DNA of 64,000 bases, taken from a virus (taxonomy: Duplodnaviria; Caudoviricetes). The number at the start of each line of letters is the position of its first letter. Positions within the stretch are counted from its first letter, which is position 1. Below, piece after piece: positions 29,439-58,416 of this stretch. Where the stretch lies: the IMG/VR virus record IMGVR_UViG_3300035661_000004. One strand, 5' to 3'. The notes beneath the pieces are model-generated. The model was not told the origin of the DNA. It worked only from the letters and a program-made list of their open reading frames with translations, and made no database searches. Made by a program: the position numbers and the translations under genes.

Positions 29439-30566
29439 ATGACAGTCCTCAACTACCTTGACCGCTCCCGCTGGGACCAGTTCTGCTACTTCCTCAAGCA
29501 GATGAACGTCCGAGGTCTTGCGGCTCACTACAACAAGACCTACAGCTACACCACGGCCCTCTCGCCGGACGTTATGTACTTCCAGCCGCTGGTCTTAGCG
29601 CCGTCTGACCGCCGGATGCTGGCGCGCGACATCATCGGCGTTCCGTCAAGCCAGCTCTCACCCGAGGACAAGGTCTGCAACGCGTCGTTGTCTTACTGGT
29701 ATGGCCCGACCTACATCCTGACCTACTTGACCGGGATCACCGACACAGCCAAGGCGCACATAGACTTTGACCGTGTCTACGATGACCAGGACTACGTCGA
29801 GTCCCTGCGAGCCAACATCGCCTTTGCCCGCAAGCACAAGCATCCCATCTGGACTACGACTGAGCTACACACGTCGATCCAGACAGAAGGCCGCAACTAC
29901 TGCAAGCAGAAGTACAACGACCCGGCCCGCAAGGCTGACTCGTTGGACATCGTCGAGTGGATGGCTCACCTCAAGCGTAACGGCTGGGTGAAGAAGGTCA
30001 TCGAGGCGAAGACCCTCGAAGACGCTTACAAGGCTTACTGCGAGCCTCGAGGTGTAGGCCCGTACTTCGGCGGCAACGCTGTCATGATGGCCGCCAACCT
30101 CAAGGAAGCCGCATACTCGCACGAAGAAAGCTTCTGCGCAGCTGGCGGCGGCGCGATCGCCACGCTTGACTGGCTGTTTGAGCCGATGAAGAGCGCCGGC
30201 GTCAAGCTGAATCCCAATAAGCTCATTAACCTCCTCGTTGAGCATCAAGACACTCTGATGCCTGATGTCAAGGTGCCGGTTGAGTTCCAAAACTTGGACG
30301 GCTGGGACGGCAAGATTCTCAAGAAGGACCAAACCTTCTATACGGCCAACAGCTTAGAGGTAGGTTTGTGCCAGTGCAGCGTCTACAACAAGTTCCTCAA
30401 GGAGCCTGAGGCGATGAAGCGGCGCAAGGACGTGACCTACGACCTGACGCCGTTTAAGCTGCGGGAGCAGGGTGTTGCGGCCGATGACATCCCAACGGGT
30501 GACTACGGCAAGACCGTGGACATGAAGCCGGAACCGCCGTTCAGGCTCGACCTGCTCGAGTTCTGA
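29439..30566 (+). CDS. alpha-glutamyl/putrescinyl thymine pyrophosphorylase-like (amino acid:DNA transferase family) protein
   Basis: HhH-like PRGVGPYFGG, AGGGAIATLDWLF and EVGLCQCSVY resemble aGPT-Pplase motifs. Confidence 0.55.
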   Translation: MTVLNYLDRSRWDQFCYFLKQMNVRGLAAHYNKTYSYTTALSPDVMYFQPLVLAPSDRRMLARDIIGVPSSQLSPEDKVCNASLSYWYGPTYILTYLTGITDTAKAHIDFDRVYDDQDYVESLRANIAFARKHKHPIWTTTELHTSIQTEGRNYCKQKYNDPARKADSLDIVEWMAHLKRNGWVKKVIEAKTLEDAYKAYCEPRGVGPYFGGNAVMMAANLKEAAYSHEESFCAAGGGAIATLDWLFEPMKSAGVKLNPNKLINLLVEHQDTLMPDVKVPVEFQNLDGWDGKILKKDQTFYTANSLEVGLCQCSVYNKFLKEPEAMKRRKDVTYDLTPFKLREQGVAADDIPTGDYGKTVDMKPEPPFRLDLLEF

Positions 30567-33959: not shown

Positions 33960-34460
33960 ATGCAAGGCTTCATCTATCTCTGGCGCGACTCGTTGCGTAA
34001 CATGTACTACATCGGCTCTCATGAAGGAGTACCGACAGACAGCTACACCTCATCGTCGCGTTGGTTCAATGGTGAATATCACTATCGACCTCAAGACTTC
34101 AAGCGTCGAATCCTTAAGATCAGCGACATTGAAGAGATTCGAAAGCTAGAATGGGATCTACTAGCCAGAATTAAGGACTGTGAGTACAATACCAAGTACT
34201 ACAATCAGAAAGTCGGTCGCAAGAAAGGTCAATTGCCATGGAATGCAGGCAAGACAATGTCTGAAGACTATTGTAAAGCTATCAGCGAAGGCCGAAAGGG
34301 GAAAGGCACGGGGAAACCTGCCTGGAACAAAGGGGTAAAGAATCCCAATGCAGCTGAAAATGGACGCAAGTCAGCTGAAAAATTGTCTAAGACAATTACA
34401 GGCAGGAAAATTGCCGTCGTTGACGGTAAGAGGACGTGGGTATATCCTGAAGGGGTGTAG
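33960..34460 (+). mobile_element. GIY-YIG (Seg-like) homing endonuclease
   Basis: GFIY...YYIGSH, YYNQK and PWNAGK/AWNKG NUMOD3 repeats; AT-rich. Confidence 0.85.
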
Positions 34461-34712
34461 CCGTTTCTGTTGCCAAGTACGGCTACGAACTCCGAAGGCT
34501 TATTAGGCCGCCATCGCGTAGACAGAGTCGTTTGCGTTTGTAATGCTTTGCGCTGCTTACGGCAGTCACCTATCGAGCGCCTATGGTCATACTACGCGTC
34601 GGTCGATCGCCAAGTCACCCCCACCGAAGAACACATGATATGTGCTTGGGTGGAGGTGCCGGGAATTGAACCCGGGTGTCGCCGCTTTTCTTACCTTCAG
34701 TTTACGCTGTTC
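34452..34712 (-). ncRNA. ssrA: Circularly permuted (two-piece) tmRNA
   Basis: Acceptor piece (CCGGG-TTCAATT-CCCGG-CACCTCC-A, ending at 34651) precedes the coding piece starting GGGGGTG at 34622; G3.U70 pair; tag GCA AAC GAC TCT GTC TAC GCG ATG GCG GCC TAA (ANDSVYAMAA, 34535-34503); outer ends approximate. Confidence 0.92.
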
Positions 34713-34993
34713 AGCTCTTATTTACTTCCACGGATTCTTGTCGAGCTCTTTGTGCAAACGCTCAACGCCGATCTTGGCGATGTAAGCAGGCCCATCCTCT
34801 GACCACACGAAGAAGATCGGGTTGCCGGTGAAGAACGCCAGCATCACCTGATCCACGGTCTCCATGAAGACAGCGTGGATCATGATCCGTGTGCCCCGCA
34901 TCACGTGCAGCTTCTTGTCCCGCAGGACCACGTCATAGTCAAGCGCAAGTCGGTCGATGAACGTTTGTTGAAGCTCCAGGAGCTTGTTCTTGC

Positions 34994-37711: not shown

Positions 37712-37798
37712 TGGTGCGCCCGGCCGGACTCGAACCGGCACGCCACTGCTGGCGTCAGGACCTAAACCTGGTGTGTCTACCAATTTCACCACGGGCGC
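37712..37798 (-). tRNA. tRNA-Leu(TAG)
   Basis: Cloverleaf with long variable arm, anticodon loop TT-TAG-GT, encoded CCA. Confidence 0.92.
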
Positions 37799-38578
37799 GC
37801 TTTTGGAAAGTCCTGTGTCAAGCCCAGGCTTTCGCCATATACGTAAGCCCAACCATCTTTCCTGGACAGTATAAAAGATGAGTTCTCTATTGTGTGATCA
37901 TATGCATAGCTTGCGCTACATGATAGCCTCCATCGGCTGGTTACTCATCGGTTGCGTCGATGGGATGACGTGCTTGCTCAACCAGCTCGAGGATCTTTAA
38001 CCTTGCTGGCTTCAGGTAATGCTTGAACGTACGGCCGCTTGCTGAGCTCGTCGAGCGCTGTGTGGCTCTGGTGCTTCAGCACCAGCGGGTTGGTCTCAGC
38101 GTCAACGACGATGCTGAACAGCTCGTTCCCGAGCAGGGACTCGGCCATCAGGACCAGGTCCGCTTCAGGGAGAACCAACAACGCCTCTTTGAACGAGCTC
38201 ATGCGACCACCAGAATCTTGGCCTTGCTGAGCTGTGGCAGGCGGATCACGGTGTCGAGCGTGGGCTTCAGCAGCCAGCTCTTGACGGTGCCGTCATGCTT
38301 CTTGTCAACATGGCTGACATAGAACGAGGCCTCCTCGCCCGAGCCTGTCGAGATGACGTGCATGCCTTCATCGGCGGTGCGGTCATTGACAGGCTCGAAG
38401 ATCGGGAGGCCTCGAGCGGCGTGCTGCAGGACGCCAGCACGTGTTACCAGCATACCCAAGTGCTTGCTGAAGTTGAACAGGTTGCTTGGGTATTGCATGG
38501 CAGTCTCGCTGTTTGGGATTCGGTAGGATGATTGTATCACAAAGCCAAGCCTTGTAAACACATCATCCAGGCCGAAGC

Positions 38579-39001
38579 TTACTTCAGCGATTCCAGCAGG
38601 GCCTGCAGGTCCTCGACGGACATGTCGTTGATGGCGTTGGCCTTCTTGTCGTCGATGGCCTTCATCACCAGCTGGCGCTGAGCGGCGCGAGCGGCGGCGT
38701 TGGCGGCGGCCGTGCGTTCGGTCGAGATGACGTCGATGACGTACTTGACGACCTCGAGCTTCAGCGGCGTGACGACGTCAGCCGGCTTGGCGCTGGCCGT
38801 GACGAAGCTGGTCGGCTCGTCATTGTCGGCCTTGGCCTTGCGGAACAGAGACTTGGCGATGTCGTCCAGGTTGGCCTTGCCGGTGCCCGAGGTCAGCGGC
38901 AGGTCCCACAGGTCCTCGATGGCCAGCGCGCCCTTCGGCGTGTCGAAGCGCCACTTCTGGCGGGAGGCCTGCAGCAGCAGGTTGTCGATGTTGGTTGTCA
39001 T
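38579..39001 (-). CDS. Conserved phage hypothetical protein, likely partner of the upstream 693-aa protein
   Basis: QASRQKWRFDTPKGAL.IEDLWDLPL; co-transcribed pair. Confidence 0.7.
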   Translation of the reverse strand: MTTNIDNLLLQASRQKWRFDTPKGALAIEDLWDLPLTSGTGKANLDDIAKSLFRKAKADNDEPTSFVTASAKPADVVTPLKLEVVKYVIDVISTERTAAANAAARAAQRQLVMKAIDDKKANAINDMSVEDLQALLESLK

Positions 39002-39033
39002 GATGTGCTTCCTTTCAGTGTTGCACGGGTGGA

Positions 39034-41115
39034 TCAGAATGCGACTCGGATGACGCGGTTGAGAGCGCCCTTGACACGCACGACCACGGTGTCGCGTACC
39101 GTGGACGAGAAGCCCAGGCCCGACAGCTGTTCGGACGCCTTGGCGACCTTCAGCTTGGAGCCGACCATCTCCAGGACCTTGCGGTGCTTGTTCAGCTCCG
39201 GGGTCAGGAACTCGTTGTAGAAGCCACGGGCGGTGCCGTCATTGGCACAGCCTTGCAGCATGAAGAAGTAGTGCTTGTTGCCGGCGCCCTTCTGGTCATC
39301 CCAGTGGTTCGGTGACAGCATCACGACGTTGACTTGCTGGAAGGTCTGGGTCTTCAGGCCCCAGACATCCTTCGTCGTGCTCGTGCTCGGCAGCGACTCG
39401 ATGATCGTGAAGCCGTCCTTCTTCGAGTACTTGATCTTCGCCACGGTCAGGTTCGACCGAGACGGGATCGCGCGATCGTAGTAGATCGTCGTGGTCACGC
39501 CGTCGAACTCGATGTCGACGCCGAAGCCCTTGCCGTCCGTCGACCGCTTGACGAAGTTGTTGATGAACAGCTCGTAGACGCCTTCTTTCATGCGGTTGCG
39601 GTTGGCGTAGTAGATGTTCTCGCACGGCTCGTTCTTCATGCCGTCAACGCCGTTGGCGTCCAGGTCCAGCTCGCCACCGCACGGAGACAGGCTACGGCCA
39701 CCCTTCAGCCGGTAGCTGCCGTAGTAGATCTCGGAGCCGCCCGGCTCGACCATGTGGAAATCCAGGTCATCGGTGTAGTCCCAGGCCAGGCGGCAGCACA
39801 GCTCGCCGACCACTTGGCCGCCGGCGCTCTTAACACGTTCCTTGATCGAGTCCGTCACGTCGCCGGTGTAGGACCAGCTGAAGGAGTTGTCCCAAGCAAA
39901 CAGCTTGCCAGCCGTCGGGTCGGTTGGAGCGATCAGGCTGACCAGGCGGTTGGTGTGCTTGTTCTCCAACAGCAGCTCGATCGACTTGGCCGTCGGCAGG
40001 ATGTCCTTCAGGAACTTCTCGATGCCCACCTCCTCGATCTTGTCGAAGGACCTGGTCGAGACCTTGGCGTCACCCACCAGGTCATCGAACACGTCGCCGG
40101 TCATGGTCGCCTTGGCGTCGCGGTTGGCGAACAACACGTTGTTGACCGTGATGTCCGTCAGGACTGCGAAGCGGCGTTCCAGGGCCGAGACCAAGCCCAG
40201 CTTCTGCAGCTCGCCCTTGGCCTTCTCGATCATGCCCTTGGTAACCAGCGCCGTCGGACGCTTGTAGTTCTGCGGGGCGGTCTTGGACTCGTAGATCTTG
40301 ACGGCGTCATCCAGCTCCTTCATGGCCAAGTCCTCGACCAACGTGCCGATGACCGAAGTGCGGAAGCCGCACAGTGCGCCTGCTGCCTTGAACTTGGTCC
40401 AGGCGAAGAGCGCTTGTCGGTCAGCCGACAGCTTGTCGAAAGCGGCCTTCAGCTCACGGAAGGAGGTGACGGCGCCCTTGAACTGGTCACCGCGGTAGAT
40501 CGAGCCCTGCGTGATCAGCTCCAGCACCGCGTCGATGTTCTCGATGCTCAGGTCGGTCAGGCTGCGGTGCAGGGAGTCACGGGCCGAGCGGTCTTCGCTC
40601 AGCTTGGTCGCGACATGGTCCTTGCCCACCACGTAAGCGCGCGGGATGTTGACGAAGAAGTGATCCCAGGCTTGCTGACCGCCGTTGACCAGCTGCTCGA
40701 AGCTGCGGTCGGTGCCGGCCTTGTCCAGGTAGTGCAGGAACACGTCGCCGATGGCGTGAGCCTTGACGGTCGCGGACAGCGCGTTGGCAACAGTTTGGTA
40801 AGCCGGCTCCTTGGCGGCGATGTCGATGTCCCAGATGGACGTGAGCGAGCCGTCGGCGTTGATCGTCACGACGTCGCCAACGTCACGGATGAAGTGGCGG
40901 CAGCAGGTACAGTCGTGCTCCGTGCGCTCACGGTACATCGGGTTGGTGCCTTCCGGGAAGGCGCCCAAGTAGGTGTTCCAGAGCAGGTCGCTCTTGGCAC
41001 CGGTCTCATCCTTCGGGATGCTGACGCGGAACAGAGCGGCGTTGTTGGCCGTCATCTCCGCGAAGCGCTTCTGGATCGCCTTCTTGAAGACGTTGAAGTT
41101 CAGCACGTGGGTCAT
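39034..41115 (-). CDS. Large conserved phage early protein with CxCC motif and a C-terminal YfaP/DUF2135-like domain
   Basis: EHDCTCCRHFI; DDLDFHMVEP...GELDLDANG; early promoter at 41144-41172. Confidence 0.7.
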   Translation of the reverse strand: MTHVLNFNVFKKAIQKRFAEMTANNAALFRVSIPKDETGAKSDLLWNTYLGAFPEGTNPMYRERTEHDCTCCRHFIRDVGDVVTINADGSLTSIWDIDIAAKEPAYQTVANALSATVKAHAIGDVFLHYLDKAGTDRSFEQLVNGGQQAWDHFFVNIPRAYVVGKDHVATKLSEDRSARDSLHRSLTDLSIENIDAVLELITQGSIYRGDQFKGAVTSFRELKAAFDKLSADRQALFAWTKFKAAGALCGFRTSVIGTLVEDLAMKELDDAVKIYESKTAPQNYKRPTALVTKGMIEKAKGELQKLGLVSALERRFAVLTDITVNNVLFANRDAKATMTGDVFDDLVGDAKVSTRSFDKIEEVGIEKFLKDILPTAKSIELLLENKHTNRLVSLIAPTDPTAGKLFAWDNSFSWSYTGDVTDSIKERVKSAGGQVVGELCCRLAWDYTDDLDFHMVEPGGSEIYYGSYRLKGGRSLSPCGGELDLDANGVDGMKNEPCENIYYANRNRMKEGVYELFINNFVKRSTDGKGFGVDIEFDGVTTTIYYDRAIPSRSNLTVAKIKYSKKDGFTIIESLPSTSTTKDVWGLKTQTFQQVNVVMLSPNHWDDQKGAGNKHYFFMLQGCANDGTARGFYNEFLTPELNKHRKVLEMVGSKLKVAKASEQLSGLGFSSTVRDTVVVRVKGALNRVIRVAF

Positions 41116-43701
41116 CGGGATTTCCTTTCCTATTGTGGTCTAGATAGTAACACCTGCCAAGCAAGTTGTAAACAAAAAGTTGTCAGGCTTTGATGATGTA
41201 GCCGAAGTGGGTGAGGACGACGAAGGCGGCGAGCCCGGTCAACGCCCGAAGGCTACCTTGAGGATGAGGTTGAACGGGTCGCTGCGGTTCCAGATCACCA
41301 TGAGGAAGCCGAACATCACGAAGCTGAGGCAGAGGTAGAGGGACAGGAGGCTCATGATCACACCATGTGGTTGAAAGCGTGTTCCAGGATGTCGCGCGCG
41401 TTTTGCGACACGCTCGGTTGCTCGGACTCCTCGCCAGAGCAAAGCTCCTCCAAAGCGTGCCGAGGCATGGCAGAGAGCTCCTTGTCGACGTCAGCGATGA
41501 CCTTCGAGTCAAACTTGAGGCGTACAACGCCCCACATCTTGTCCAGGACCTTGCTCTCGGGCATGGACCTATTGACGCAGCCATTGTCGTAGGCGATCTC
41601 GAGAAATGCAAATTGGAGGCTCATGCCGTCTCCTTAAGTATCACTGTTGTCGATAAGATGATTGTACACCCATTCGGACCGTGATGTAAACGGCTTTCAG
41701 CTCTTTGGAGCTACGTTCCGCTTGCCGGTGAAGCCTTCAGCCGCGGCGCGTGCCGCACGGTCCAAGGAGTTCTGGTAGTCCTGACCGGTGGCTTGCCGCA
41801 GCTCGGTCAAGCGGTCGCCAAGCTCCTTGGCCTCCTTGACCTCGACATCGGTCAAGCGGCCACCCAGGGCCTTGAGGACCAGCAGCGCGTCCTTCTTGCT
41901 CAAGGTGAAGGACCAGCGCGGGATGTAGGACACCTCGGGTGCTGGGTTGATCTCGTCAAAGTCTTGGCTCATGGTGTTGCTCCTTTAGCAAGCAAAGCGA
42001 TCAAAAAGCTCAGCAGGGCGACGCAGCCCAAGAGCAGGGCGATGCCTGCATGGCGCCCGTTCAGGCGCTTGAGAGCCGTGTTGAGTCGGTCATACACAGG
42101 TCCGTCGAGAGCATCGAAGGTGATCAGGCCCATGGCAAGGAGGGAGAAGGCGGTGATAGCGCCGCAGGCTTGGTAGATCATCATGAGCTCCTTGTTTGGG
42201 TGAGCGTGAGCGCGGGAGTGCTCTGAATGTCCAGCTCCTCCCGCACGGTGTTGCCGCTGTAGGTGACATGACACGGCCGAGTTGGACCTGGAAGCCGACA
42301 CGTTTGAAGGAGCCAGCTAAAGCCTCGGCCTCCTCGCGCTGGTCCATGGAGTATTCCAGCTTGAGCTGAACCAGGTCTACGAGAGCGTGAACAACGTACG
42401 TGATGCGGTGGGTGTTGTTCATTTTGCCCTCTTCAGAGCCTTGGCAAGCTCATCAGCGTAGATCGGCTTGGTGACGCCTTTCAGGCGAGCGCGCTCGACT
42501 ACCCGGCTGGCCGCTTGGTGAGGCGTGAGCCAGTTACGACCGTCGAACACGTGGTCGCCCGCCGGCTTGTTGCCAAGCTTGCGAGCCTCGGCCAGCTGCC
42601 GGCGGGCGGTCGGGTCCCGCCGCACCTCGGCTTCGGTCTTGCCTGACTTTGCCGCAGCTGCGTCATGAGCTTGCGCTCATGCTTGTTCATGACATGCTTG
42701 GTCGGAGCCGCATTGGCCTTACGCTCGCTCACGAAAGACTTTAGCTCCAAAGTCGGAGCGCGCATGACCCTGAAGCTCCAGTCTAGCGCCCTGAGCTCAG
42801 CAGCCGCTGTGGGAACAGGATCGTACCCGACTGGATACATGCGGCTTTGGTCACCGCACTCGATGCTAAGGAAGCCTGTCTTGTAGGCCTCCCAGGTCAT
42901 CGTCAAGGTGTCGCCGGCGTTGACCACTGTGACCTTGACTGTCCGCGCTTTGACTCGTTTGAAGGTCAGCTCATGGCCATCATCGATGCAGGCTTGCTGC
43001 ATGATGAGGAGAGCTCGTCGCATGTCAGACGAATTGCTCATGCTACTTCCTGCGCCGACGAGCGCGCTTGCGCTTCGGCTTAGGGACCAGATCTGAGAGC
43101 GTTGCTTGTCGCTCGATGTAGTACTGCCGGCGAGCCAGCCGCAGCTCTTCAGTGACTTGGCCGATCATGCGCGAAGCACAGTCACGGGAGCAAGCTTTTT
43201 GGAACTCGCGCGCCGGCGTGAAGGTGTGGCCGCAGCCGCCCCGGTTAGAGGCACAGCAGATGGATGAGTAGGTCATACCAGCTCCGCAAAGCCAAACGGC
43301 TTGCACTCGTAGGCGCGGCCGTTGACCTCGATCACGTCACCGACGGACATCGAGGTGTGGTTCAGCTCCTTGCTCGTGATTAGCTCGCGGGCTTCGCCGT
43401 TCGGGGACCAGCATTCACCTTGGAGAGAGCCGAAGATAGCTTCGAGGTGGGTTTCGGCGATGGAGCCCAACAGCACGTGCGTTGCCTCCAGGTTCTTCGG
43501 GTCAACCTTGACCTCGCCGAAGGTGATGTAGCGGGCGACCGCGGGCTTGTAGTACCAGACCTTCGTGGCGCCTGCATGCAGGGCGCAAAGGTTGGAATCA
43601 TTGAGCGATTTGAGCATCTTGCATCTCCAAGTATCACTGTTGCCGATATGATGATTGTACACCAGTACGGCCTCCGTGTAAACACTCGAGAGACAAAAAG
43701 A

Positions 43702-43797
43702 TGGCGGAAGGCTGAGTACTCGAAACCCATCCCGCTTGTTGAGAGCGAGACCCTCGGATTAGCAATCCGGTCCAGGCACCTACCTGGTTAACCTTCC
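43702..43797 (-). tRNA. tRNA-Ser(GCT)
   Basis: Cloverleaf with long variable arm, G73, encoded CCA. Confidence 0.92.
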
Positions 43798-44212
43798 ATG
43801 AATTCGCGCTTTACTCAGTCGTGATGATCTTCGAGCGGGTCGTCGTAGAGCCGTACATGTAAGCGTGCGTCAGGCCGTTTGTACAGCACCTCCTCGGACA
43901 CAGCGCAACCTGTAGCCTCCTTCAGGTGGTTGAGCGTGTCGGGAGCGTCACGCAGCGTGATAAGCAAGCTTTGACCAGACGCGCGAAGCACCGTGCCGTA
44001 CTCTGCATTGATTAGCCTTGCGGCGGTTTCGGGCGAGTACTTTGCGTCAAGCCCAACACGGACAATGTACCGCTTTTCCTTGCCAAGTGCTTCTGCAGCT
44101 GGCTCTTGTTCTTCAGCCTTCTTGCCAAAGATTCGGTCCCACCCGCTACGGTAGGAGTCGGTAGTTGACTTGGACTTGAGGGCATCGCCGGTAATGTCGT
44201 TGTGTGCTATCA

Positions 44213-44307
44213 TGGCGGATAGTTGAGTACTCGAAACCCAATCCCTCGTTACCGAAGAATCCCACTGCTTTCCAAGCAGGTCCGGTCACCTAACCGGTTA
44301 ACTATCC
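44213..44307 (-). tRNA. tRNA-Ser(GGA)
   Basis: Cloverleaf with long variable arm, G73, encoded CCA. Confidence 0.92.
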
Positions 44308-44310
44308 ATG

Positions 44311-44396
44311 TGTCCCGTACCGGACTCGAACCGGTACGCCTCTTCCGAGGCGGCAGAGTTTAAGCCTGCTGCGTCTACCAATTTCGCCAACGGGGC
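44311..44396 (-). tRNA. tRNA-Leu(TAA)
   Basis: Loop CT-TAA-AC, long variable arm, one acceptor-stem mismatch, no encoded CCA. Confidence 0.88.
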
Positions 44397-44487
44397 GGTG
44401 GAAGACGGAGGACTTGAACCCCAAGCCACATCTCTGTGACTCCCACTGCTTTCGAAGCAGGTCCGGACCCTGTCCGGTTCATCTTCC
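44397..44487 (-). tRNA. tRNA-Ser(CGA)
   Basis: Loop TT-CGA-AA, long variable arm. Confidence 0.88.
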
Positions 44488-44490
44488 GTA

Positions 44491-44635
44491 AGGTGACAGT
44501 AGGACTCGAACCTACGATGCATAGTCTGTCATGCTAGCTTATGCCATCGGTTCCTGCCATGGGCATGCGAGGGTGATAAGGCCTCTCCGTCTTGACTTGA
44601 CCGCGACGCTGTCTACCAATTTTCAGCATGTCACC
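44491..44635 (-). ncRNA. tRNA-like RNA with an oversized (about 90-100 nt) central region
   Basis: Acceptor GGTGACA/TGTCACC, Leu-type D loop and perfect T arm GTAGG-TTCGAGT-CCTAC, but no canonical anticodon arm. Confidence 0.7.
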
Positions 44636-44636
44636 T

Positions 44637-44719
44637 TGGTGCCCTCGGCGGGACTCGAACCCGCAAAAATCTAGCATCTCAAGCTAGTAGCTGTACCAAT
44701 TTGCATTTATCACGAGGGC
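44637..44719 (-). tRNA. tRNA-Leu(GAG), atypical (short variable loop, long D region)
   Basis: CTAGC-TT-GAG-AT-GCTAG; variable region ATTTTT; encoded CCA. Confidence 0.75.
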
Positions 44720-44767
44720 GTGATGTGTTTGCATTATATTACCTTTTCGGCCAAGGTGATATAAAGC

Positions 44768-44860
44768 GGCGGATGACAGAGGACTCGAACCCCAGCCCGG
44801 GTACTAGCCGAACCGTACCGCTTTCAAGGCGGCCCCGGACGCCCGCCCGGTTTATCATCC
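44768..44860 (-). tRNA. tRNA-Ser(TGA)
   Basis: Loop CT-TGA-AA, long variable arm, G73. Confidence 0.88.
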
Positions 44861-45415
44861 GATGATGAGGTGCTGCAGCTTAGCTACAGCTTCGTTCCAA
44901 GAGGCCCCAATGACGCTGTCAGGAACCCTTACGCTAATGCACCACCGAGGCTCAGCCTCCACGTCAATGGAGTGCGGAACGTCCGTGCGCACGAGCGTAA
45001 GCTCTTGCTTGACCTCATGGCTGTCAATAAGCGTGAGCTCCGTCTTAGGCCATGAGAGGTAGTCTGTCTCGACCATGGTCAGGCTTGCGGCACCTGCTTT
45101 GCCCTCATGCCCTGTGTACCACAGCATCTTGCTCCCCTTGCCGCCTAGGACCCAGTTAAAAGCAAATGCTTTCGGCCTAGTCGGCGTGCTCATGTCGATG
45201 TGCGCGATGGGGCTTCGAGCCCAAGGCTGCTTGTAGAACAAGATAGCCTGGCAGACCGGCAGGCCGATCAAGGTCATCCAGCGTAACCAATCATCGGTGA
45301 AGATGTCGGTCAGCGTAGGGTCATAGATAGCCCAGGGCTTGGGGTCAGCGGGGAGCGTCCAACCAGGTCTTAGGGCGCCCGCTGTCGGGATAGTCAGTTC
45401 ATGCCAGCACTTCAT
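44855..45415 (-). CDS. 2OG-Fe(II) oxygenase-like protein inside the tRNA array
   Basis: AHIDM (HxD), VPHSI, RWCISVR; TAAATA 5 nt before the ATG at 45415. Confidence 0.6.
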   Translation of the reverse strand: MKCWHELTIPTAGALRPGWTLPADPKPWAIYDPTLTDIFTDDWLRWMTLIGLPVCQAILFYKQPWARSPIAHIDMSTPTRPKAFAFNWVLGGKGSKMLWYTGHEGKAGAASLTMVETDYLSWPKTELTLIDSHEVKQELTLVRTDVPHSIDVEAEPRWCISVRVPDSVIGASWNEAVAKLQHLIIG

Positions 45416-46255
45416 GCTGGTATTTAGTCGCCACCGTGCCTCGCGATCCGGACGATGTCCTGGCTGGTCACGATCCGGCACTTCGCTTCGATCTCAGCGA
45501 TGCGGCGCTTGGGAATGTCGTAGTGGTCCTTGTGGAACCAGCAGCGAGCGATGTTGAGCTCCTGCGCCATCAGGTGCAGGTTCTCGATTGAGTAGGGCAA
45601 GCAGATGAGGTGCCTTGCCTTATCGGTCAGGTACTCGAGCTTCACCGCTTGAAGTTTCGGATGGCGTCGGACAGCGGCCCGAGCTCTGCGATCTCTTGGT
45701 CCTTGCGGTGGAAGGTGCAGCTAGGTTGTGAGCGCTTCCGTCCCTTGACAACCGGGTACAGCACGACAACCGGCTGATCGCACCCTGTGCGGTGGCACTT
45801 GTAGGGTGTCAGTTCGGTGCTTGAGCCATGACCGATGCGAGCCTTGCTCTTGTGCGCAAAGATGCCGCAGCTTGGGCAGCGGTAGACGGCGCGGACGCCT
45901 TCGACCGGCTTGTAGTTGTGAACGCAGCTCATTGAATCACCTTGTCGGCGCCGGCTTCCGTGATGGTCGTAATGTAACCCATGCGGGCGATGCGCTCAGC
46001 GGCTTCGATGTAACTGGTGTAGTGGTAAGCGCAACCAATGAGTGGGCTTGCAAAGCAGATGAAGCCTCGCGCAGCAGAGTCCTCGCAGCCTGGGTAGGTC
46101 AGCGGTTGGCCGCGATGAATTCCTGCGACCGCGTTGAACACCTCGACGCCGTCTTTTGTGACTACAATTTGTGTCGGGAAGGTCATGCTGTGCTCCTAAG
46201 TATCGGTTGGCAGAATGGAATGATTGTACATCATCACGATCCGCTTGTAAACACT

Positions 46256-46340
46256 TGGTGCGCCCGGTCGGACTCGAACCGACACGCCTTGCGGCAACAG
46301 ATTTTGAGTCTGCCGCGTCTACCCATTCCGCCACGGGCGC
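46256..46340 (-). tRNA. tRNA-Leu(CAA)
   Basis: Canonical cloverleaf, loop CT-CAA-AA, encoded CCA. Confidence 0.95.
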
Positions 46341-46344
46341 GTGA

Positions 46345-46854
46345 CTAAGTACGTTTCTTAAAACCCCACGTTGGAGTTTGTGTGTGACAGTTGGGACAGA
46401 TCATGCGTAAGTTTTCACGCCGATTGTCCTTGTTATCACCATTAGCGTGATCAAGCTGAAACACTAAGGGCTTGCCATTCCAAGTTTGTCCAAGGCCGCA
46501 TTCTTTACAAATGCCGCCTTGCTCTAACAACACGCGCTCATGGAAGCAGCTCTTAGGAACTTCGTGCCATGGTGCATCTGTTAAGTGGTGCTGCCGTTTG
46601 TCTTTTGCAATACGTGCGGCCATTAAACCGCCCTTGATTCTATCTTCGCGCATCGGCCCTGCAGTAGGTCTTCCTGCTTGATAGCCAGCTCTCAATGTAG
46701 CACTGCTTCTAGCTCGATTTGCTAAGCATTGATTAGCGCTCTTGCAGCAAATGTACTTTCCACTTGCACTAATGAATAGGGCAGTTTGCCCACAGTCGTA
46801 AGCACACATGTGTGCCGTTGAAATTGGTGTAGCTGGTTTAGGTCCGCGTTTCAT
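46345..46854 (-). mobile_element. HNH homing endonuclease inserted in the tRNA array
   Basis: CKEC...QLDHANGDNKDNRRENLRMICPNCHTQT; TAAATA at 46861-46866. Confidence 0.88.
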
Positions 46855-46866
46855 GCTGCCTATTTA

Positions 46867-46951
46867 GGTGCACACGGGGGAGACTTGAACTCCCAATCCC
46901 GAAGGCCACAGTGTCTGAGGCTGTGATGTATACCAATTCCATCACGTGTGC
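46867..46951 (-). tRNA. tRNA-Leu(CAG), with variable arm
   Basis: ACAGC-CT-CAG-AC-ACTGT; Leu-type D loop. Confidence 0.85.
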
Positions 46952-46954
46952 ATA

Positions 46955-47033
46955 TGGTGCCCTAGGCGGGACTCGAACCCGCAGAATTCCGCTTCTGAGG
47001 CGGACATGTTTACCAAGATTTCATCACCAGGGC
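46955..47033 (-). tRNA. tRNA-Leu(CAG), short variable loop
   Basis: TCCGC-CT-CAG-AA-GCGGA; variable region ATTCT; encoded CCA. Confidence 0.85.
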
Positions 47034-47039
47034 GGTGGG

Positions 47040-47120
47040 TGGAGGTAGAAGGAATCGAACCTTCATGACCGAAGTACCGGGGTTACAGTCCGGGCGCTCT
47101 CCATAGGCGTCTATACCTCC
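47040..47120 (-). tRNA. tRNA-Tyr(GTA)
   Basis: Loop CT-GTA-AC, long variable arm, A31.C39 mismatch. Confidence 0.85.
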
Positions 47121-47134
47121 AAGGGTCTTACGGG

Positions 47135-47215
47135 TGGATCAGGATAGGAGTCGAACCTACGTAGCTTTCGCGGGAGCCCAAACTGGCTCCTGGGCTCGTC
47201 TCACCCAGCTGATCC
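47135..47215 (-). ncRNA. Atypical cloverleaf tRNA-like RNA
   Basis: GGATCAG/CTGATCC acceptor, 5-bp D-like stem, GAGCC/GGCTC stem with a 6-nt loop, canonical TTCGA T loop. Confidence 0.65.
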
Positions 47216-47223
47216 ATTACTTT

Positions 47224-47308
47224 TGGTGGGGCCGCAAGGAATCGAACCTTGTTGGTCAGGGACACCGGGTTTACAGGCCGGGCAGAAGCCATTACTGTCT
47301 ACGACCCC
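47224..47308 (-). tRNA. tRNA-Tyr(GTA)
   Basis: Loop CT-GTA-AA, long variable arm, encoded CCA, C31.C39 mismatch. Confidence 0.88.
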
Positions 47309-47350
47309 AAAAGTAAAGCGCGAATTGTTAAAGAGCGTCACACCAATGAG

Positions 47351-47383
47351 AAAAAGCCTCGGACCTTTCGGTCGGAGGCTTTT
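47351..47383 (-). terminator. Attenuator terminator (3:4 hairpin) upstream of the first tRNA
   Basis: AAAAGCCTC-C-GACC-GAAA-GGTC-C-GAGGCTTTTT. Confidence 0.92.
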
Positions 47384-47410
47384 GCTAGGTGTGAAGGTAG
47401 AAGTTCTGTC

Positions 47411-47485
47411 TTACCCGATCATGCAAAAGCCTCCATCGCTATAAAGCGATGAGGAGCTCAAATATGATAGGGAGGTGTTCTTCAT
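47411..47485 (-). CDS. Attenuator leader peptide MKNTSLSYLSSSSLYSDGGFCMIG
   Basis: Codons 5-16 are all Ser/Leu/Tyr; contains antiterminator segment GGAGGCTTTTGC, complementary to 47374-47385. Confidence 0.88.
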   Translation of the reverse strand: MKNTSLSYLSSSSLYSDGGFCMIG

Positions 47486-47494
47486 GATGGTAGA

Positions 47495-47523
47495 ATTGTA
47501 TTTACAGTCGAAGTCGTTGTAAA
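47495..47523 (-). promoter_or_regulatory. Sigma70-type early promoter of the attenuated tRNA operon
   Basis: TTTACA-N17-TACAAT, same consensus as about 11 other copies in the window. Confidence 0.88.
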
Positions 47524-48523: not shown

Positions 48524-49153
48524 TCAGCTCGTGATGAACTTCGGAGCCAAGTCACGGTACACGCGGCTGCGGTCCTTGTTGGCGATCCGTCCCAACAAGA
48601 AGGCCATCTGATCAGCCTGGATGTTGCGGTTGCGCATGATCATGGCTTCGGCCTTGCACGGGATGTACGGCAGGTAGAGCGGATCCATGGTCCGAGTGCC
48701 TTGCGGGCTGTACTGTCCATGCGGCAGCGGCTTGCCTGGCAGCAAGTCACCCTTCAGGTTGTTGCAGGCCTTGCAGGCCGTGACCACGTTCATCCACACG
48801 TCCGGGCCGCCCTTCGACACCGGCATGATGTGGTCACGAGTCAGGTCATGGCTCGTGAACAAGCCAGAGCAGTAGGCGCACATGTAGCGGTCACGCTGGA
48901 ACAGTGAGGAGTTCGTCAGCGCAGACGGCTTAACCCGCTTGACCGTTGACTCGCCCTTGATGACGATGATCGAAGCCGTCATCAGCTCGGACTGGGACTT
49001 GGTCACGGAGTTGTCACCACCACGGTAGGTGATGAGGTCATCGCCCAGGTGATCCAGGACTTGGCCCTTGGCTTCGCACATGATGGCCTCGTCACGGGTG
49101 ATCCACTCGTGAGGGGTCCAAGACTTGTCGAGTACCAGAACTTGATGCTGCAT
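48524..49153 (-). CDS. HNH endonuclease (McrA-like)
   Basis: VLVLD N-terminus; LFQRDRYMCAYC...TRDHIMPVSKGG...WMNVVTACKACNNLKG. Confidence 0.9.
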   Translation of the reverse strand: MQHQVLVLDKSWTPHEWITRDEAIMCEAKGQVLDHLGDDLITYRGGDNSVTKSQSELMTASIIVIKGESTVKRVKPSALTNSSLFQRDRYMCAYCSGLFTSHDLTRDHIMPVSKGGPDVWMNVVTACKACNNLKGDLLPGKPLPHGQYSPQGTRTMDPLYLPYIPCKAEAMIMRNRNIQADQMAFLLGRIANKDRSRVYRDLAPKFITS

Positions 49154-53899: not shown

Positions 53900-54352
53900 T
53901 TAAGGAGCTTCGGGAGACGCTCGCTTACTTGCCAGATCAGCCCTGATTCCCATCAGCAGCCGACCTAGCCAGTTTTGACCGACGCCGTCACAGACGCCCC
54001 AGAAGGTGTCACCCCAGTGGTTTCCCTCCACAAGCTCCTCATCACCCGTGGTTAGCAGCATCGCCGCAAGGCCGGTGTTTGAGAACTTGCTTTCAAGGAT
54101 GTCACGCATCACCTGCACCTTGACCAGGTCCCAGTCAGGTCGAAGCGGCAGCTTGCGCCCGAGCCGCTTGACTTGACCCGCTGTCTTTGCTTCAAGGACC
54201 AGGTCCAAGACCGCGGGCCAAAGGTGCGGCTCGACTTTGGCCATGACATAAGCATGCTCCGATGACGGGAAGAGCACGTCCTTGTACTTGACGGTGCAAG
54301 GCCAAAAGTTGCTCAGCCAACGGTGTTCACCCTTGAACTCAGCGATCATCAT
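53900..54352 (-). CDS. NADAR (YbiA-like) ADP-ribose/N-glycosidase
   Basis: WLSNFW, SEHAYVMAK, LVEGNHWGDTFWG and NWLGRLLM. Confidence 0.92.
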   Translation of the reverse strand: MMIAEFKGEHRWLSNFWPCTVKYKDVLFPSSEHAYVMAKVEPHLWPAVLDLVLEAKTAGQVKRLGRKLPLRPDWDLVKVQVMRDILESKFSNTGLAAMLLTTGDEELVEGNHWGDTFWGVCDGVGQNWLGRLLMGIRADLASKRASPEAP

Positions 54353-54915: not shown

Positions 54916-56493
54916 TCAGAATGTAAACACGCCCCAGCCGATATCGATGCTGTTCTCAACCCTTGCGCCGTTGAGGGCCATGATGACATGCGGCACGCTG
55001 GTTTCACCGTCGCCGTCATCGATGTACATCGTCAGCTTGACCGTGCCGCCCCAAAGGTAGGAGGCATGCGCGATCACGTCATTGGCTTGCTCTTCGTTGA
55101 GGGGGCGGTTGTTGACAACGAAGTGCTTCAACCTTAGCACGTCATCGTCGTTTCCGATGACCTGGATGTCAGGCTTGTAGCGCGAGATGTGGTACTGTGC
55201 GGCCAGCTTAGCGCGCAGTTCACGGAAGGACTCAGGACGAGCCACCTCGGTGATTAGGTACTCTTCGTCATAGAGTCCGTGGTCACGGATCGCAAACATC
55301 TCGAGCTTCTTCGCTACCGACGGCGCCAAGAACTGCAGGATGAAGGTCTCATCGGTATAGTTCATCATGGCTTCTTGCAAGACATCCTGCCACGGTTGCC
55401 CCTTCAAGTGGCCGTGGTACGGCTCGTCATCGGGGTCCTTGCAGCCATCCTCGCAGGCAGCCTTGAGGGACATGAAGATCTCAAAGCCGAGCTTGTACGG
55501 GTTGAAGGCGGCTTGCGCACGCTGCGCGATGACGCCCGAGTGCATTCGGAAGAACTCATGCATCGAACCTTCGTCGATTAGGCCCTTGTCATACAGCCTG
55601 TTGAGGATGTAGTAGTGAGTGAAGGTAGCGTAGCCCTCATTCAGCACCTTGGTCTTGCGTTGTGGGTCAAAGTACTGAGCGATCATCCGGTTGATGCGGA
55701 TGAGCTCCTTCTTCCACGCTGGGATCTTGCCGTGCTTCTCGATGAAGTAGAGGAGGTTCTCTTGCGGCTCTGCGAGCAAGCCTTCTTCGTCATCCTCGGC
55801 AGGCGGTGCTTGGTCAGCCTTTGCCTTGTCGACCAAGCCTTTGCCGACCTTCTGCCACACAGCGTCATAGTCATACAGCTGCTGAGCAAAGCGCTCGATG
55901 GCCTTCTTCTCCTCTTGCTCAGAGTTCAGAGCGCGGTTCCGCTTAGCGCTGTCTGTGCCGTACAGGCTCAGTGCATGGCACGCGTCAAGCACCGCTTCGA
56001 CTTCGTCAACGCCGTAGCGCTCTTCGCACATCAAGATGTAACGGCGAGCGAAGCTCAGGTAGCTGACGATGCCCGCCGCGTCCGTGTAGTTCTTGAACAT
56101 GAAGTTGTTCTTGAAGACAGCGGAGTGGCCGATCGATGCGTGCGCGATGACCAACAGTTGGACCAACGCGTTGTTCTCCTCCATCAGGTAGGCGATGCAG
56201 GGATTCGAGTTGATGACGATCTCGTACGCCAGGCCCATGAGGCCCTTCTTGTAGTCTGCCTCCGACTTGACCAGCTCCTTGCCGTATGACCAGTGCGAGT
56301 ACCAGACCGGCAAGCCGCTTGAGGTATAAGCTTCGAGCATCTGTGCGGCCGAGACCACTTCAATCTGAGGCTCGTAGTAGGTCTGGCGCATGTCCTCTTG
56401 CGCGATGACCTTGCACTCCTCCCAGCAGCGTCGGAGGAGCTCTTCATTCCAGTCGGCGCCCGACGTGAACAGGAGCTTGCTATCTTCAGACAT
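54916..56493 (-). CDS. spoVR: SpoVR / YcgB family protein
   Basis: GLP..YSHWSYGK, GLAYEIVINSNPCIAYLME, HASIGHSAVFKNN and KVLNEGYATF. Confidence 0.93.
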   Translation of the reverse strand: MSEDSKLLFTSGADWNEELLRRCWEECKVIAQEDMRQTYYEPQIEVVSAAQMLEAYTSSGLPVWYSHWSYGKELVKSEADYKKGLMGLAYEIVINSNPCIAYLMEENNALVQLLVIAHASIGHSAVFKNNFMFKNYTDAAGIVSYLSFARRYILMCEERYGVDEVEAVLDACHALSLYGTDSAKRNRALNSEQEEKKAIERFAQQLYDYDAVWQKVGKGLVDKAKADQAPPAEDDEEGLLAEPQENLLYFIEKHGKIPAWKKELIRINRMIAQYFDPQRKTKVLNEGYATFTHYYILNRLYDKGLIDEGSMHEFFRMHSGVIAQRAQAAFNPYKLGFEIFMSLKAACEDGCKDPDDEPYHGHLKGQPWQDVLQEAMMNYTDETFILQFLAPSVAKKLEMFAIRDHGLYDEEYLITEVARPESFRELRAKLAAQYHISRYKPDIQVIGNDDDVLRLKHFVVNNRPLNEEQANDVIAHASYLWGGTVKLTMYIDDGDGETSVPHVIMALNGARVENSIDIGWGVFTF

Positions 56494-56896
56494 TGGGACC
56501 CTCCTTGGGGCAGGCGAGATTGAGCTGAGCTTCGCTGATAGAGCCAGGCTCCATCACGATCTTGGTGTTCATCGTGGACTCTTGCACCGCATTTGAGTCG
56601 GCGTCATAAGCCACGAGGAACTTGATGGTAGAGGTGCGGGCCTTGCAGTCATGCTCAGTCCGCGAGACGTAGCTGGTCTTGTCGTCAAGGTTCTCGAGCA
56701 ACGTGAACGTAATGGGAACCTTACCGCCTCGAGCTACCGTGACGTGAGCCAAGAGGTTGTCCTTGCGAAGCTCGACGATGCCATTGCGAACGGTAGCTTG
56801 CGGAGCTGCAACGATCGGATGACTTTCAACATTGATGCTGGCCTCGCAGCCAACAAGGAGCGCTAGGCACCAAAGCCATACTGCGCGACGACGCAT
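56486..56896 (-). CDS. Putative lipoprotein
   Basis: Basic-hydrophobic N-terminus with lipobox LLVGC. Confidence 0.65.
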   Translation of the reverse strand: MRRRAVWLWCLALLVGCEASINVESHPIVAAPQATVRNGIVELRKDNLLAHVTVARGGKVPITFTLLENLDDKTSYVSRTEHDCKARTSTIKFLVAYDADSNAVQESTMNTKIVMEPGSISEAQLNLACPKEGPNV

Positions 56897-57068
56897 TGAA
56901 GTACCTCTTGGGCGTTGATGATCTCGTAATCGGACTTCTTAATCTCGTTGAGGTATGAAGCGAGCGGCTGTTCAGCTCCGAGCATCTTGCCGTTCTCGTC
57001 CCTGGGAACACAAGTGACAAGGGAGCGACCGAAGATGTGCTTGACGGTCAATGCGGTGAGTTGGATTT

Positions 57069-58379
57069 TCATGTCTTGGTGGTGGAGAAGAATGCGTGGA
57101 AAACGCCGAAGATGTCCCGCTCATGGTAGACTTGCTTGGAAGCGTGGTTGGGGTGCGCATCGCTGAGCGCCGAGTAGGTTGACCAGAGGCTATTGCGCGA
57201 GTAGTAGGACGGCGAGCTGTTCTGTGCTCCTTCCTGCTCTACCTGCACGTAGGCGAAGTAGTTGACATACGGCAGGATGTCATCGATCAGCAGCTCGCTG
57301 CAAGTGCCGTTGTCGGTGCCTGTGTTGTCGCCGTCGGAGACCTGCGCAACGTAGATGTTGGTCTTGCCTCTCAGGGACTCGATGCACTTAATTAGCAGGT
57401 CGAGCGCCGACGACACGATCGTGCCGCCGTTCTTGTGGGTGTTGAAGAACTCATCCTCGGGCAGCTCTTCGGCTTCAGTCGTGTGTGAGATGAAGCGCAG
57501 GTCGATCTGATCGTAGTTGCGGTCGAGGAAGAGGTACAGCAGGATGAAGAACTTGCGGGCGATGGTCTTCTCGCGTTCACCCATTGAGCCCGAGTTGTCC
57601 ATCAGCATGAACATCGTAGCATGCGTCTTCGGCACCTTCTTCTCGATTCGAGTCCGAAAGCGGAGGTCAGATGAGTCAAAGAGCGGCAAGACGGTTTTAC
57701 GGCGCAACAGCTCAGCGATCTGGTCACGTAGCTCGAACACGCGCTTCGATGTCGGATGGTCAAGCGGTAGGTCGTTATCGACCATTTCAGCCGTGAGCCT
57801 GTTGAATTCCTCTTCGAGCTCCTTCAACTCAGCGCCGATCATAGCGCCCGAGCTCAAGCGGCGGGCCTTCGAGTTCTTGTAGGAGCGGATCACCGACAGC
57901 CGGTTGGGCGAGCCTGCAACTTGGAAGCCTGCGTTCTCATGCACGGTTTCCGTCTGCTTAGCCAGCAGGGTCTCGAGCATAAACGGCAGCTCGCAGTCCT
58001 CGAAGAGCATGTTGAGGAACTCGTCACGGGACAGCACTATGCTAAACTCGTCCATGCCGTCAGGACCGTCACCTGCCCCACCGCTTTCGCCGCTCTCAGG
58101 CTTAGGCACTGTGTCGTACTCGACCCAGTCCTTGTTGCCTGGCAGGACCGTGTCTTTCATGCCGCCTTCACCGTAAGTGAACTGGGGCTCAGAGAGGTCA
58201 CGCTTGGGAACGGTGACCTTGCCGCCGCCTCCCTTGATCGAGTCGAGCAGCTTGCGATCGCCTAGGATCTTCGGCAGCTGCTCTTTGATTGCACCCTTGT
58301 AGCGCCGCAGCAGCCTGCCGCGATTTTCAGAGGTTCGGTCGCGGTTTGCGGCCTTCCTGCGATCGATGATGATTGCCAT
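57069..58379 (-). CDS. yeaH: YeaH/YhbH (DUF444) VWA-domain protein
   Basis: IIDRR...NR.R.LRRYK, LMDNSGSMG (MIDAS), FISHTTEA, GGTIVSSAL and VSDGDN. Confidence 0.93.
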   Translation of the reverse strand: MAIIIDRRKAANRDRTSENRGRLLRRYKGAIKEQLPKILGDRKLLDSIKGGGGKVTVPKRDLSEPQFTYGEGGMKDTVLPGNKDWVEYDTVPKPESGESGGAGDGPDGMDEFSIVLSRDEFLNMLFEDCELPFMLETLLAKQTETVHENAGFQVAGSPNRLSVIRSYKNSKARRLSSGAMIGAELKELEEEFNRLTAEMVDNDLPLDHPTSKRVFELRDQIAELLRRKTVLPLFDSSDLRFRTRIEKKVPKTHATMFMLMDNSGSMGEREKTIARKFFILLYLFLDRNYDQIDLRFISHTTEAEELPEDEFFNTHKNGGTIVSSALDLLIKCIESLRGKTNIYVAQVSDGDNTGTDNGTCSELLIDDILPYVNYFAYVQVEQEGAQNSSPSYYSRNSLWSTYSALSDAHPNHASKQVYHERDIFGVFHAFFSTTKT

Positions 58380-58416
58380 GGTCTTCCTATTCCTCTGGTA
58401 TGATTGTATCTATTGC

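Follow-up and report, generated by a model that had tools for sequence, protein, structure and literature searches.

A phage array of complete leucine, serine and tyrosine tRNA families behind a predicted leader-peptide attenuator

Introduction

The window analysed here is a stretch of 64,000 nucleotides of viral DNA, corresponding to the minus strand of bases 11041-75040 of the 90,151-bp IMG/VR record IMGVR_UViG_3300035661_000004, and belongs to a large, uncultured, T4-like phage. Between positions 37712 and 47308 it carries an array of 12 tRNA genes, all on the minus strand, drawn exclusively from the leucine, serine and tyrosine families, which are the bacterial families with long variable arms (class II). 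The purpose of phage tRNAs has been debated for decades, the two main proposals being compensation for codon usage and replacement of host tRNAs that have been destroyed. A set that comprises three entire families to the exclusion of all others does not sit easily with codon bias, and we describe below its content, its probable regulation and what it may be for.

Results

A complete and exclusive Leu, Ser and Tyr tRNA set

The array encodes Leu tRNAs with anticodons TAG, TAA, GAG, CAA and CAG (two copies), Ser tRNAs with GCT, GGA, CGA and TGA, and two copies of Tyr GTA. These ten anticodon species (five Leu, four Ser, one Tyr) make up the full bacterial complement and read all 14 Leu, Ser and Tyr codons; only the most-used species are present twice, CAG (which reads CTG) and the Tyr GTA. 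An earlier note on this DNA, made from the sequence alone, had listed the same 12 anticodons and claimed that every standard bacterial anticodon of the three families is present, and both statements are confirmed by ARAGORN at default and relaxed settings combined with reading of the anticodon loops.

Eight of the 12 genes (Leu TAG, Ser GCT, Leu TAA, Leu CAA, both Leu CAG and both Tyr GTA) are found by ARAGORN at its defaults, together with a two-piece transfer-messenger RNA (tmRNA), again all on the minus strand. Relaxed settings and inspection of the loops by eye yield the other four (Ser TGA, Ser CGA, Ser GGA and Leu GAG), of which Ser GGA and Leu GAG are miscalled by the program because the loop is mis-registered; the Leu GAG gene, called as 'act', has a perfect 5-bp anticodon stem (CTAGC/GCTAG) closing the loop TTGAGAT. 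Half of the genes (6/12) attain the Rfam tRNA gathering score. All 12 place a Leu, Ser or Tyr anticodon in a 7-nt loop with U33, a test that two further tRNA-like RNAs in the array (X1 and X2) fail, and these were excluded from the count. The variable region is at least 10 nt in ten of the tRNAs, the exceptions being the shorter Leu CAG (5 nt) and Leu GAG (6 nt), and the discriminator base is A73 in every Leu and Tyr tRNA, G73 in three Ser tRNAs and A73 in Ser CGA. The genes had been described as canonical and as only of class II. They are present, but 'canonical' overstates their character given the eight default detections, the Ser tRNAs with 8/4 cloverleaves (an 8-bp acceptor stem and a 4-bp T stem), the short-loop Leu tRNAs, the mismatches and the extra bases; as a statement about shape, 'only class II' does not hold for the two Leu tRNAs with 5-6 nt variable loops.

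The source record is linear and estimated by CheckV to be about 25% complete. It was extended by contig walking via identical proteins, which lengthened it by 19,603 bases at one end and 39,301 at the other to give 149,055 contiguous bases, the adjoining pieces being identical at 99.8-100% in their overlaps. No further tRNA was found in the 90,151-bp record with ARAGORN or the Rfam model, and none in the 58.9 kb of added flanks with ARAGORN, where no Rfam family reaches its gathering score either; the sequence is free of other tRNAs for about 72 kb on one side of the array and about 67 kb on the other. A scan beyond the window had been proposed in the earlier note as a check for class I tRNAs elsewhere, and none occurs in these 149,055 bases of an incomplete genome. 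The array is identical in four DNA sequencing runs, from sediment and microbial mats, and is therefore no assembly artefact; no RNA run containing this stretch was listed. Contig depth is roughly 10-fold higher over positions 37712-37744 (the 3' part of Leu TAG) and 46294-46334 (in Leu CAA) and the assembly graphs branch at these points, from which it follows that Leu TAG and Leu CAA share 31-mers with abundant members of the community, possibly including the host.

Two background samples were used to judge how unusual this exclusivity is. In phages carrying a conserved DUF8224 gene, 14 of 55 tRNAs were for Leu, Ser or Tyr, and in 36 viral contigs from IMG/VR sharing a Ser tRNA motif (L081-L116) the count was 108 of 405, giving a share of 25-27%, mostly interspersed with class I tRNAs in both samples. 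At a share of 26.7%, the probability that all 12 tRNAs belong to these families is about 1e-7, and about 3e-5 for the eight found at ARAGORN defaults. The Leu, Ser and Tyr set is non-random and complete. It is improbable, in our view, that the set merely compensates for codons that the phage uses more than its host: Leu, Ser and Tyr do account for 19% of phage codons and the duplicated CAG and GTA tRNAs match heavily used codons, but a tRNA is also provided for TTA, which is only 2.5% of Leu codons, the commonest codons would already be served by any host of similar G+C content, and the array holds all isoacceptors of three amino acids and none for the other seventeen.

A leader open reading frame written in the codons of the array

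Upstream of the first Tyr tRNA lies a promoter-like sequence, one of 11 such sites found against 3.3 expected, followed by a 24-codon open reading frame (ORF) whose ATG is 9 nt past the -10 hexamer, so that its mRNA would be nearly leaderless. The ORF contains a run of 12 consecutive Ser, Leu and Tyr codons, of eight types, that are read by eight of the array's ten anticodon species, with TTA and CTG absent. For Leu it uses minor codons exclusively (CTA, TTG, CTT) and for Tyr it uses TAT both times; the preferred codons of the phage are CTG, CTC and TAC. In a six-frame scan covering about 139 of the 149 kb, ten-codon windows made up entirely of Ser, Leu and Tyr codons occur only in this leader. 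That the leader peptide matches the array in composition had already been claimed in the earlier note, and the codon run bears this out.

The sequence within and beyond the ORF has the elements of a leader-peptide attenuator: an ORF of cognate codons, mutually exclusive 1:2, 2:3 and 3:4 pairings, and a terminator with a U tract. Region 1, within the ORF, pairs with region 2; region 2 is a perfect 12-nt complement of region 3, which is in turn the 5' arm of the terminator hairpin (Table 1). The attenuator fold of minimum free energy (MFE, -57.8 kcal/mol; z -6.55) contains both the 1:2 and the 3:4 hairpin. To judge from the sequence, both the Ser/Leu/Tyr leader ORF and the attenuator that goes with it are genuine, with the layout of a textbook attenuator. 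No published case of a leader peptide that controls tRNA genes and is written in their own codons was found in the literature.

Serine tRNAs of the 8/4 type and leucine tRNAs without a long arm

The 8/4 arrangement is found in all four Ser tRNAs, with 100% of the aligned cells pairing in both helices and an eighth acceptor pair of UA, UA, AU and GC. Across the four paralogues 96% of pairs are kept and eight pairs have changed on both sides, which argues that they are under selection as tRNAs. Sub-threshold matches to the Rfam model of selenocysteine tRNA were considered for these genes and rejected, as the 8/4 cloverleaf with Ser anticodons accounts for them. (8/4) tRNA-Ser is known from phages and proteobacteria, where it occurs in phage tRNA clusters (Mukai et al., NAR 2017, PMC5389517). 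The Ser tRNAs described here resemble that group in their 8-bp acceptor stem, 4-bp T stem, long arm, Ser anticodon and location in a phage cluster, and differ from it in that all four Ser isoacceptors of the phage are of the 8/4 type and that one has A73 in place of G73.

The long arm is ordinary in Leu TAG, Leu CAA and Leu TAA. The two Leu tRNAs lacking it (CAG and GAG) read CTG and CTC/CTT, or 77.7% of the Leu codons of the phage. A similar tendency is seen in the 36 other phage loci, in which 27 of 49 Leu tRNAs are no longer than 79 nt (74-78 nt) compared with 0 of 50 Ser and 0 of 9 Tyr tRNAs; these short Leu tRNAs have no long variable arm. A natural short-loop tRNA-Leu is charged by a bacterial leucyl-tRNA synthetase (LeuRS) in Streptomyces coelicolor (PMC6614811). 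That type I tRNA is likewise a bacterial-type tRNA-Leu whose variable loop is short, and is charged in its own organism by the ordinary LeuRS; those described here are phage-encoded and stand beside long-arm Leu tRNAs. Arm loss in the most-used Leu tRNAs of the phage fits the idea of the arm as a liability, without proving it. Other departures include a mismatched 31-39 pair in both Tyr tRNAs and the 86-nt Leu CAG, and, in some of the tRNAs, an additional base separating T stem and acceptor strand. The lost arms and the 31-39 mismatches (two and three tRNAs respectively) are possible changes to a recognition site, the meaning of which would depend on the enzyme concerned.

Identities within families are 64-73% for the four Ser tRNAs, 74-77% among Leu TAG, CAA and TAA, 76% between the 79-nt Leu CAG and Leu GAG, and 68% between the two Tyr tRNAs. 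It might be proposed from this paralogy, and from the presence of repeat families, that a few long-arm founders were copied in place and their anticodons drifted within families, leaving a set that was never selected. We regard this as very improbable, since drift predicts no exact one-each coverage of anticodons and would leave unexplained both the preserved pairing with compensatory changes and the use of the same three amino acids in the leader.

Array layout and neighbouring genes

The layout of the array and its surroundings is given in Table 1. X1 and X2 are tRNA-shaped and incapable of normal decoding. The arms of the perfect 15-nt inverted repeat enclose 3.5 kb of the array, and about 0.01 such repeats would be expected by chance in 4.1 kb; we conjecture that these arms could pair the ends of one long precursor as a processing stalk, or be the ends of a mobile cassette. 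The two HNH endonuclease ORFs are likely to be homing elements that have split the array.

Table 1. Features of the tRNA array and its surroundings, in window coordinates.
Feature	Position	Strand	Description
Promoter-like TTTACA-N17-TACAAT	47495-47523	-	Recurs at 46223-46251, 43654-43682, 41661-41690 and 38531-38558
Leader ORF	47411-47485	-	24 codons; codons 5-16 all Ser, Leu or Tyr
Attenuator	47350-47434	-	Region 2, 47423-47434; region 3, 47374-47385; terminator hairpin with U tract, 47350-47383
Inverted repeat, 15 nt	47312-47326 and 43801-43815		Arms 3 nt before first Tyr tRNA and 3 nt before Ser GCT
tRNA-Tyr GTA	47224-47308	-	Long arm, A73, C31-C39 mismatch, weak D stem; 31.3 bits; ARAGORN default
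tRNA-like RNA X1	47133-47215	-	Four arms, variable region of ~13 nt, anticodon loop of 6 or 8 nt
tRNA-Tyr GTA	47036-47121	-	Long arm, A73, A31-C39 mismatch; ARAGORN default
tRNA-Leu CAG	46955-47033	-	79 nt, 5-nt variable loop (class I body), A73; 59.5 bits
tRNA-Leu CAG	46867-46952	-	86 nt, long arm, C31-A39 mismatch, extra C before 3' acceptor strand; 35.8 bits
ORF, 169 aa	46345-46854	-	Weak HNH endonuclease match; inserted within array
tRNA-Leu CAA	46256-46340	-	Canonical long arm; 60 bits
Four ORFs between sub-arrays	44855-46186	-	85 aa, 96 aa, 73 aa (DUF4031) and ~140-186 aa (cupin-like viral family)
tRNA-Ser TGA	44768-44860	-	8/4 cloverleaf, G73; relaxed ARAGORN
tRNA-Leu GAG	44637-44719	-	6-nt variable loop, irregular D arm, A73; 25.1 bits; weakest member
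tRNA-like RNA X2	44488-44636	-	Acceptor stem, Leu-type D arm and T arm; insert of ~95 nt replaces anticodon arm
tRNA-Ser CGA	44397-44487	-	8/4 cloverleaf, A73; relaxed ARAGORN
tRNA-Leu TAA	44310-44396	-	Long arm, C2-A71 mismatch; 46.8 bits
tRNA-Ser GGA	44213-44307	-	8/4 cloverleaf, G73; loop TTGGAAA, miscalled by ARAGORN
tRNA-Ser GCT	43702-43797	-	8/4 cloverleaf, G73; ARAGORN default
tRNA-Leu TAG	37712-37798	-	Canonical long arm; 51.7 bits; 6 kb downstream, separate transcription unit
tmRNA, two-piece (permuted)	34412-34741	-	Tag ANDSVYAMAA; 3 kb from Leu TAG; 96.7 bits, permuted tmRNA model
HNH endonuclease ORF	48524-49153	-	Just upstream of array
Acb1 (anti-CBASS)	25576-26154	+
5-hmdU DNA kinase helical-domain match	29439-30566	+
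NADAR protein	53900-54352	-
PrkA/DUF444/SpoVR trio	54916-62047	-

The window and flanks also encode structural and replication genes (terminase, tail tube, gp32, a RecA/UvsX-like protein, gp23, portal and sheath), as well as rIIA, rIIB, a Fapy-DNA glycosylase and the counter-defence proteins Acb1 and NADAR. The neighbourhood of the array is rich in counter-defence genes, namely rIIA/rIIB, Acb1 and NADAR. None of the ORFs in or beside the array has a tRNA-related function by Pfam, PHROGs or Atlas, and the precomputed Pfam lists for the added flanks include RNA ligases, NUDIX and metallophosphatase proteins and no tRNase. Close relatives of the phage were not found: its best DUF8224 homologue among 5.8 billion proteins searched is only 57% identical, and rIIB used as a query returned no related locus.

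Leader-matched tRNA units in other phages

A strict screen of the 36 other phage loci for a Ser/Leu/Tyr leader found none adjoining tRNAs. In four contigs of one lineage among these loci (L091, L106, L102 and L094), however, Tyr GTA forms a block of its own with Ser GCT, GGA and TGA, preceded by a conserved promoter-like element and, about 7 bases further on, by an ORF of 16-17 codons that ends in a Tyr/Ser run and contains no Leu. The complete 171-kb phage of this lineage, G017 (IMGVR_UViG_3300025310_000004), has 37 tRNAs within 13 kb (bases 77577-90917; L117:1078-14418) arranged in four units, each with the same upstream promoter-like element and a mini-ORF that is probably leaderless. The first unit pairs a Tyr/Ser peptide with Tyr and three Ser tRNAs; the second a peptide rich in Arg, Glu, Asp, Pro and Trp with tRNAs for Glu, Asp, Glu, Arg (five) and Pro (one), to which sister contigs add a Trp tRNA; the third a Met/Ala/Cys/Thr/Gly/Val peptide with Met, Ala, Gly, Val, Cys and Thr tRNAs; and the fourth a Leu/Pro/Gln/His/Asn/Lys peptide with four Leu tRNAs followed by Pro, Gln, His, Asn and Lys tRNAs. 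For each leader, 65-73% of the residues are served by its own unit, and no other unit serves more than 34% (binomial p 6e-9 to 3e-4). The hairpins that follow these mini-ORFs have no U tracts. As leader composition tracks the array in an unrelated phage, a functional reading of the leader in the window is strengthened.

Three of the four G017 units are of class I or mixed, and this raises another explanation, in which the array is one regulon of several: other leader-gated units would exist in the lineage, with those for class I tRNAs lying off the assembly or lost, and the grouping would reflect regulatory history and a general buffering of supply (for example after host shut-off, during host tRNA decay or under high late-gene demand) and not an attack on tRNA shape. 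The G017 units with their matched leaders, the status of the record as a genome fragment, and the mixed arrays that DUF8224-carrying relatives have 35-85 kb from that gene are all in keeping with it. Against this, no tRNA lies within about 72 kb and 67 kb of the array on its two sides; tRNAs are confined to one or two compact regions in each of G017, G014 and G015, and the region expected to be syntenic with the G015 array is covered by the walked sequence and contains no tRNA. We consider this explanation unlikely, if less so than codon compensation.

Discussion

An exclusive set of three families with its own sensor in the same amino acids points to a specific shortage in infected cells. The sequence features make it probable that a shortfall of the host's Leu, Ser and Tyr tRNAs prompts the phage to produce these tRNAs itself. 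The explanation that we favour, and in which our confidence is evenly poised, is that the array is a demand-switched, self-sufficient Leu/Ser/Tyr module replacing host long-arm tRNAs, probably under class-directed attack.

In such a module the leader ORF would be translated while it is being transcribed. Ribosomes running freely through the Ser, Leu and Tyr codons would allow the terminator to form, whereas a stall caused by scarcity of charged Leu, Ser or Tyr tRNA would favour the 12-bp antiterminator and let RNA polymerase read into the tRNA genes. The transcripts would be matured by host RNase P, RNase Z and CCA-adding enzyme and charged by the host LeuRS, seryl-tRNA synthetase (SerRS) and tyrosyl-tRNA synthetase (TyrRS), and the output would restore translation. 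The cause of the shortage is held less firmly: the host Leu, Ser and Tyr tRNAs may fall short together because an enzyme in the infected cell disables the long-arm shape, the agent most likely being a host abortive-infection toxin of the AbiEii or MenT kind or a nuclease and, less likely, the host shut-off of the phage itself. The Leu tRNAs for the commonest codons may then have dropped the arm, a loss that bacterial LeuRS tolerates and SerRS and TyrRS do not.

Several observations weigh against this explanation. Scores are low for a number of the tRNAs, which may function weakly or not at all, and because two of the Leu tRNAs have no long arm, the set is defined by anticodon family and not by shape. 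Immediately behind the attenuator lie only Tyr, X1, Tyr, the two Leu CAG, the HNH-like ORF and Leu CAA; the Ser-rich sub-array lies behind a second promoter copy and four ORFs, and Leu TAG is 6 kb away. In G017 the Leu tRNAs are grouped with class I tRNAs and not with Tyr and Ser, so grouping need not reflect shape, and since G017 leaders serve class I tRNAs too, leader gating is general and not specific to class II; the distant relatives carrying DUF8224 have mixed arrays. A class I array may sit in the unseen part of the genome, the record being about 25% complete and the longest contig that encodes an identical protein being 201,540 bp, a length which the genome may exceed. No enzyme directed at class II tRNAs came to light in the phage, a search of the 90-kb record with the AbiEii family being empty, and the bacterial Schlafens that have been characterised cleave tRNAs but are not class II-specific (PMC13056530, PMC13462974). 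Selection of the array as a structural class, as proposed in the earlier note, thus has partial support: the set is non-random, complete and matched by its leader, but two of its Leu tRNAs have short loops, Leu keeps company with class I tRNAs in G017 and distant relatives have mixed arrays.

Phage tRNAs that replace depleted host tRNAs, (8/4) Ser tRNAs, short-loop Leu tRNAs and leader-peptide attenuators are all already known. A phage tRNA complement limited to the three long-arm families with full isoacceptor coverage was not found described in the literature, and the leader-matched units of G017 suggest a general mechanism, apparently undescribed, in which tRNA genes are regulated by the speed at which their own codons are decoded. 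Taken more widely, it is possible, though we put it forward only tentatively and lean towards doubt, that bacteria disable Leu, Ser and Tyr tRNAs as a class, that large phages answer with complete leader-switched sets, stripping Leu arms where the synthetase allows, and that phage arrays are generally built of leader-gated regulons that name their tRNAs. Taken together, the three-family set and its sensor make a definite prediction about class-directed tRNA toxins, AbiEii and MenT among them. If regulation by leader decoding is confirmed, leader peptides could serve to infer the tRNAs that a phage expects to lose.

Enzymes with a suitable preference have been reported. MenT3 elongates tRNA-Ser at the 3' end and does so weakly with one tRNA-Leu, the long arms being remarked on by its authors (PMC7450476); the abortive-infection toxin AbiEii has been reported to have a likely preference for class II tRNAs (bioRxiv 10.64898/2026.01.19.700257); and mammalian SLFN11 prefers type II tRNAs according to work cited in PMC13056530. 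The P2 OLD paper does not mention long-arm tRNAs. MenT3, AbiEii and SLFN11 share a preference for tRNAs with long variable arms, and AbiE is itself an abortive-infection system; they are candidate opponents of the array and not homologues of any gene in the window.

Replacement of attacked tRNAs is best established for the T5 family, the idea having been put forward in eLife in 2023 (PMC10264068). Retron-Eco7 PtuAB depletes tRNA-Tyr and T5 escapes by over-producing its own (PMC11555353), while phage tRNA-Lys acts against PrrC and PARIS (PMC11555353, PMC11464382). The T5-family region and the array have in common that phage tRNAs replace, or would replace, host tRNAs destroyed by defence, that Tyr is involved and that strong expression raises supply. 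They differ in that the T5-family phages rely on one isoacceptor within a broad mixed set under a constitutive strong promoter, whereas the array consists of three whole families only and has a codon-sensing attenuator.

Leader-peptide attenuators, including multivalent ones, are familiar from enterobacterial amino-acid operons such as thr, ilvGMEDA, leu and his. The predicted phage attenuator resembles these in its promoter, its short ORF with a run of regulatory codons, its mutually exclusive hairpins and its intrinsic terminator. The enterobacterial attenuators, however, regulate biosynthetic enzymes, whereas that of the phage fronts the tRNAs themselves.

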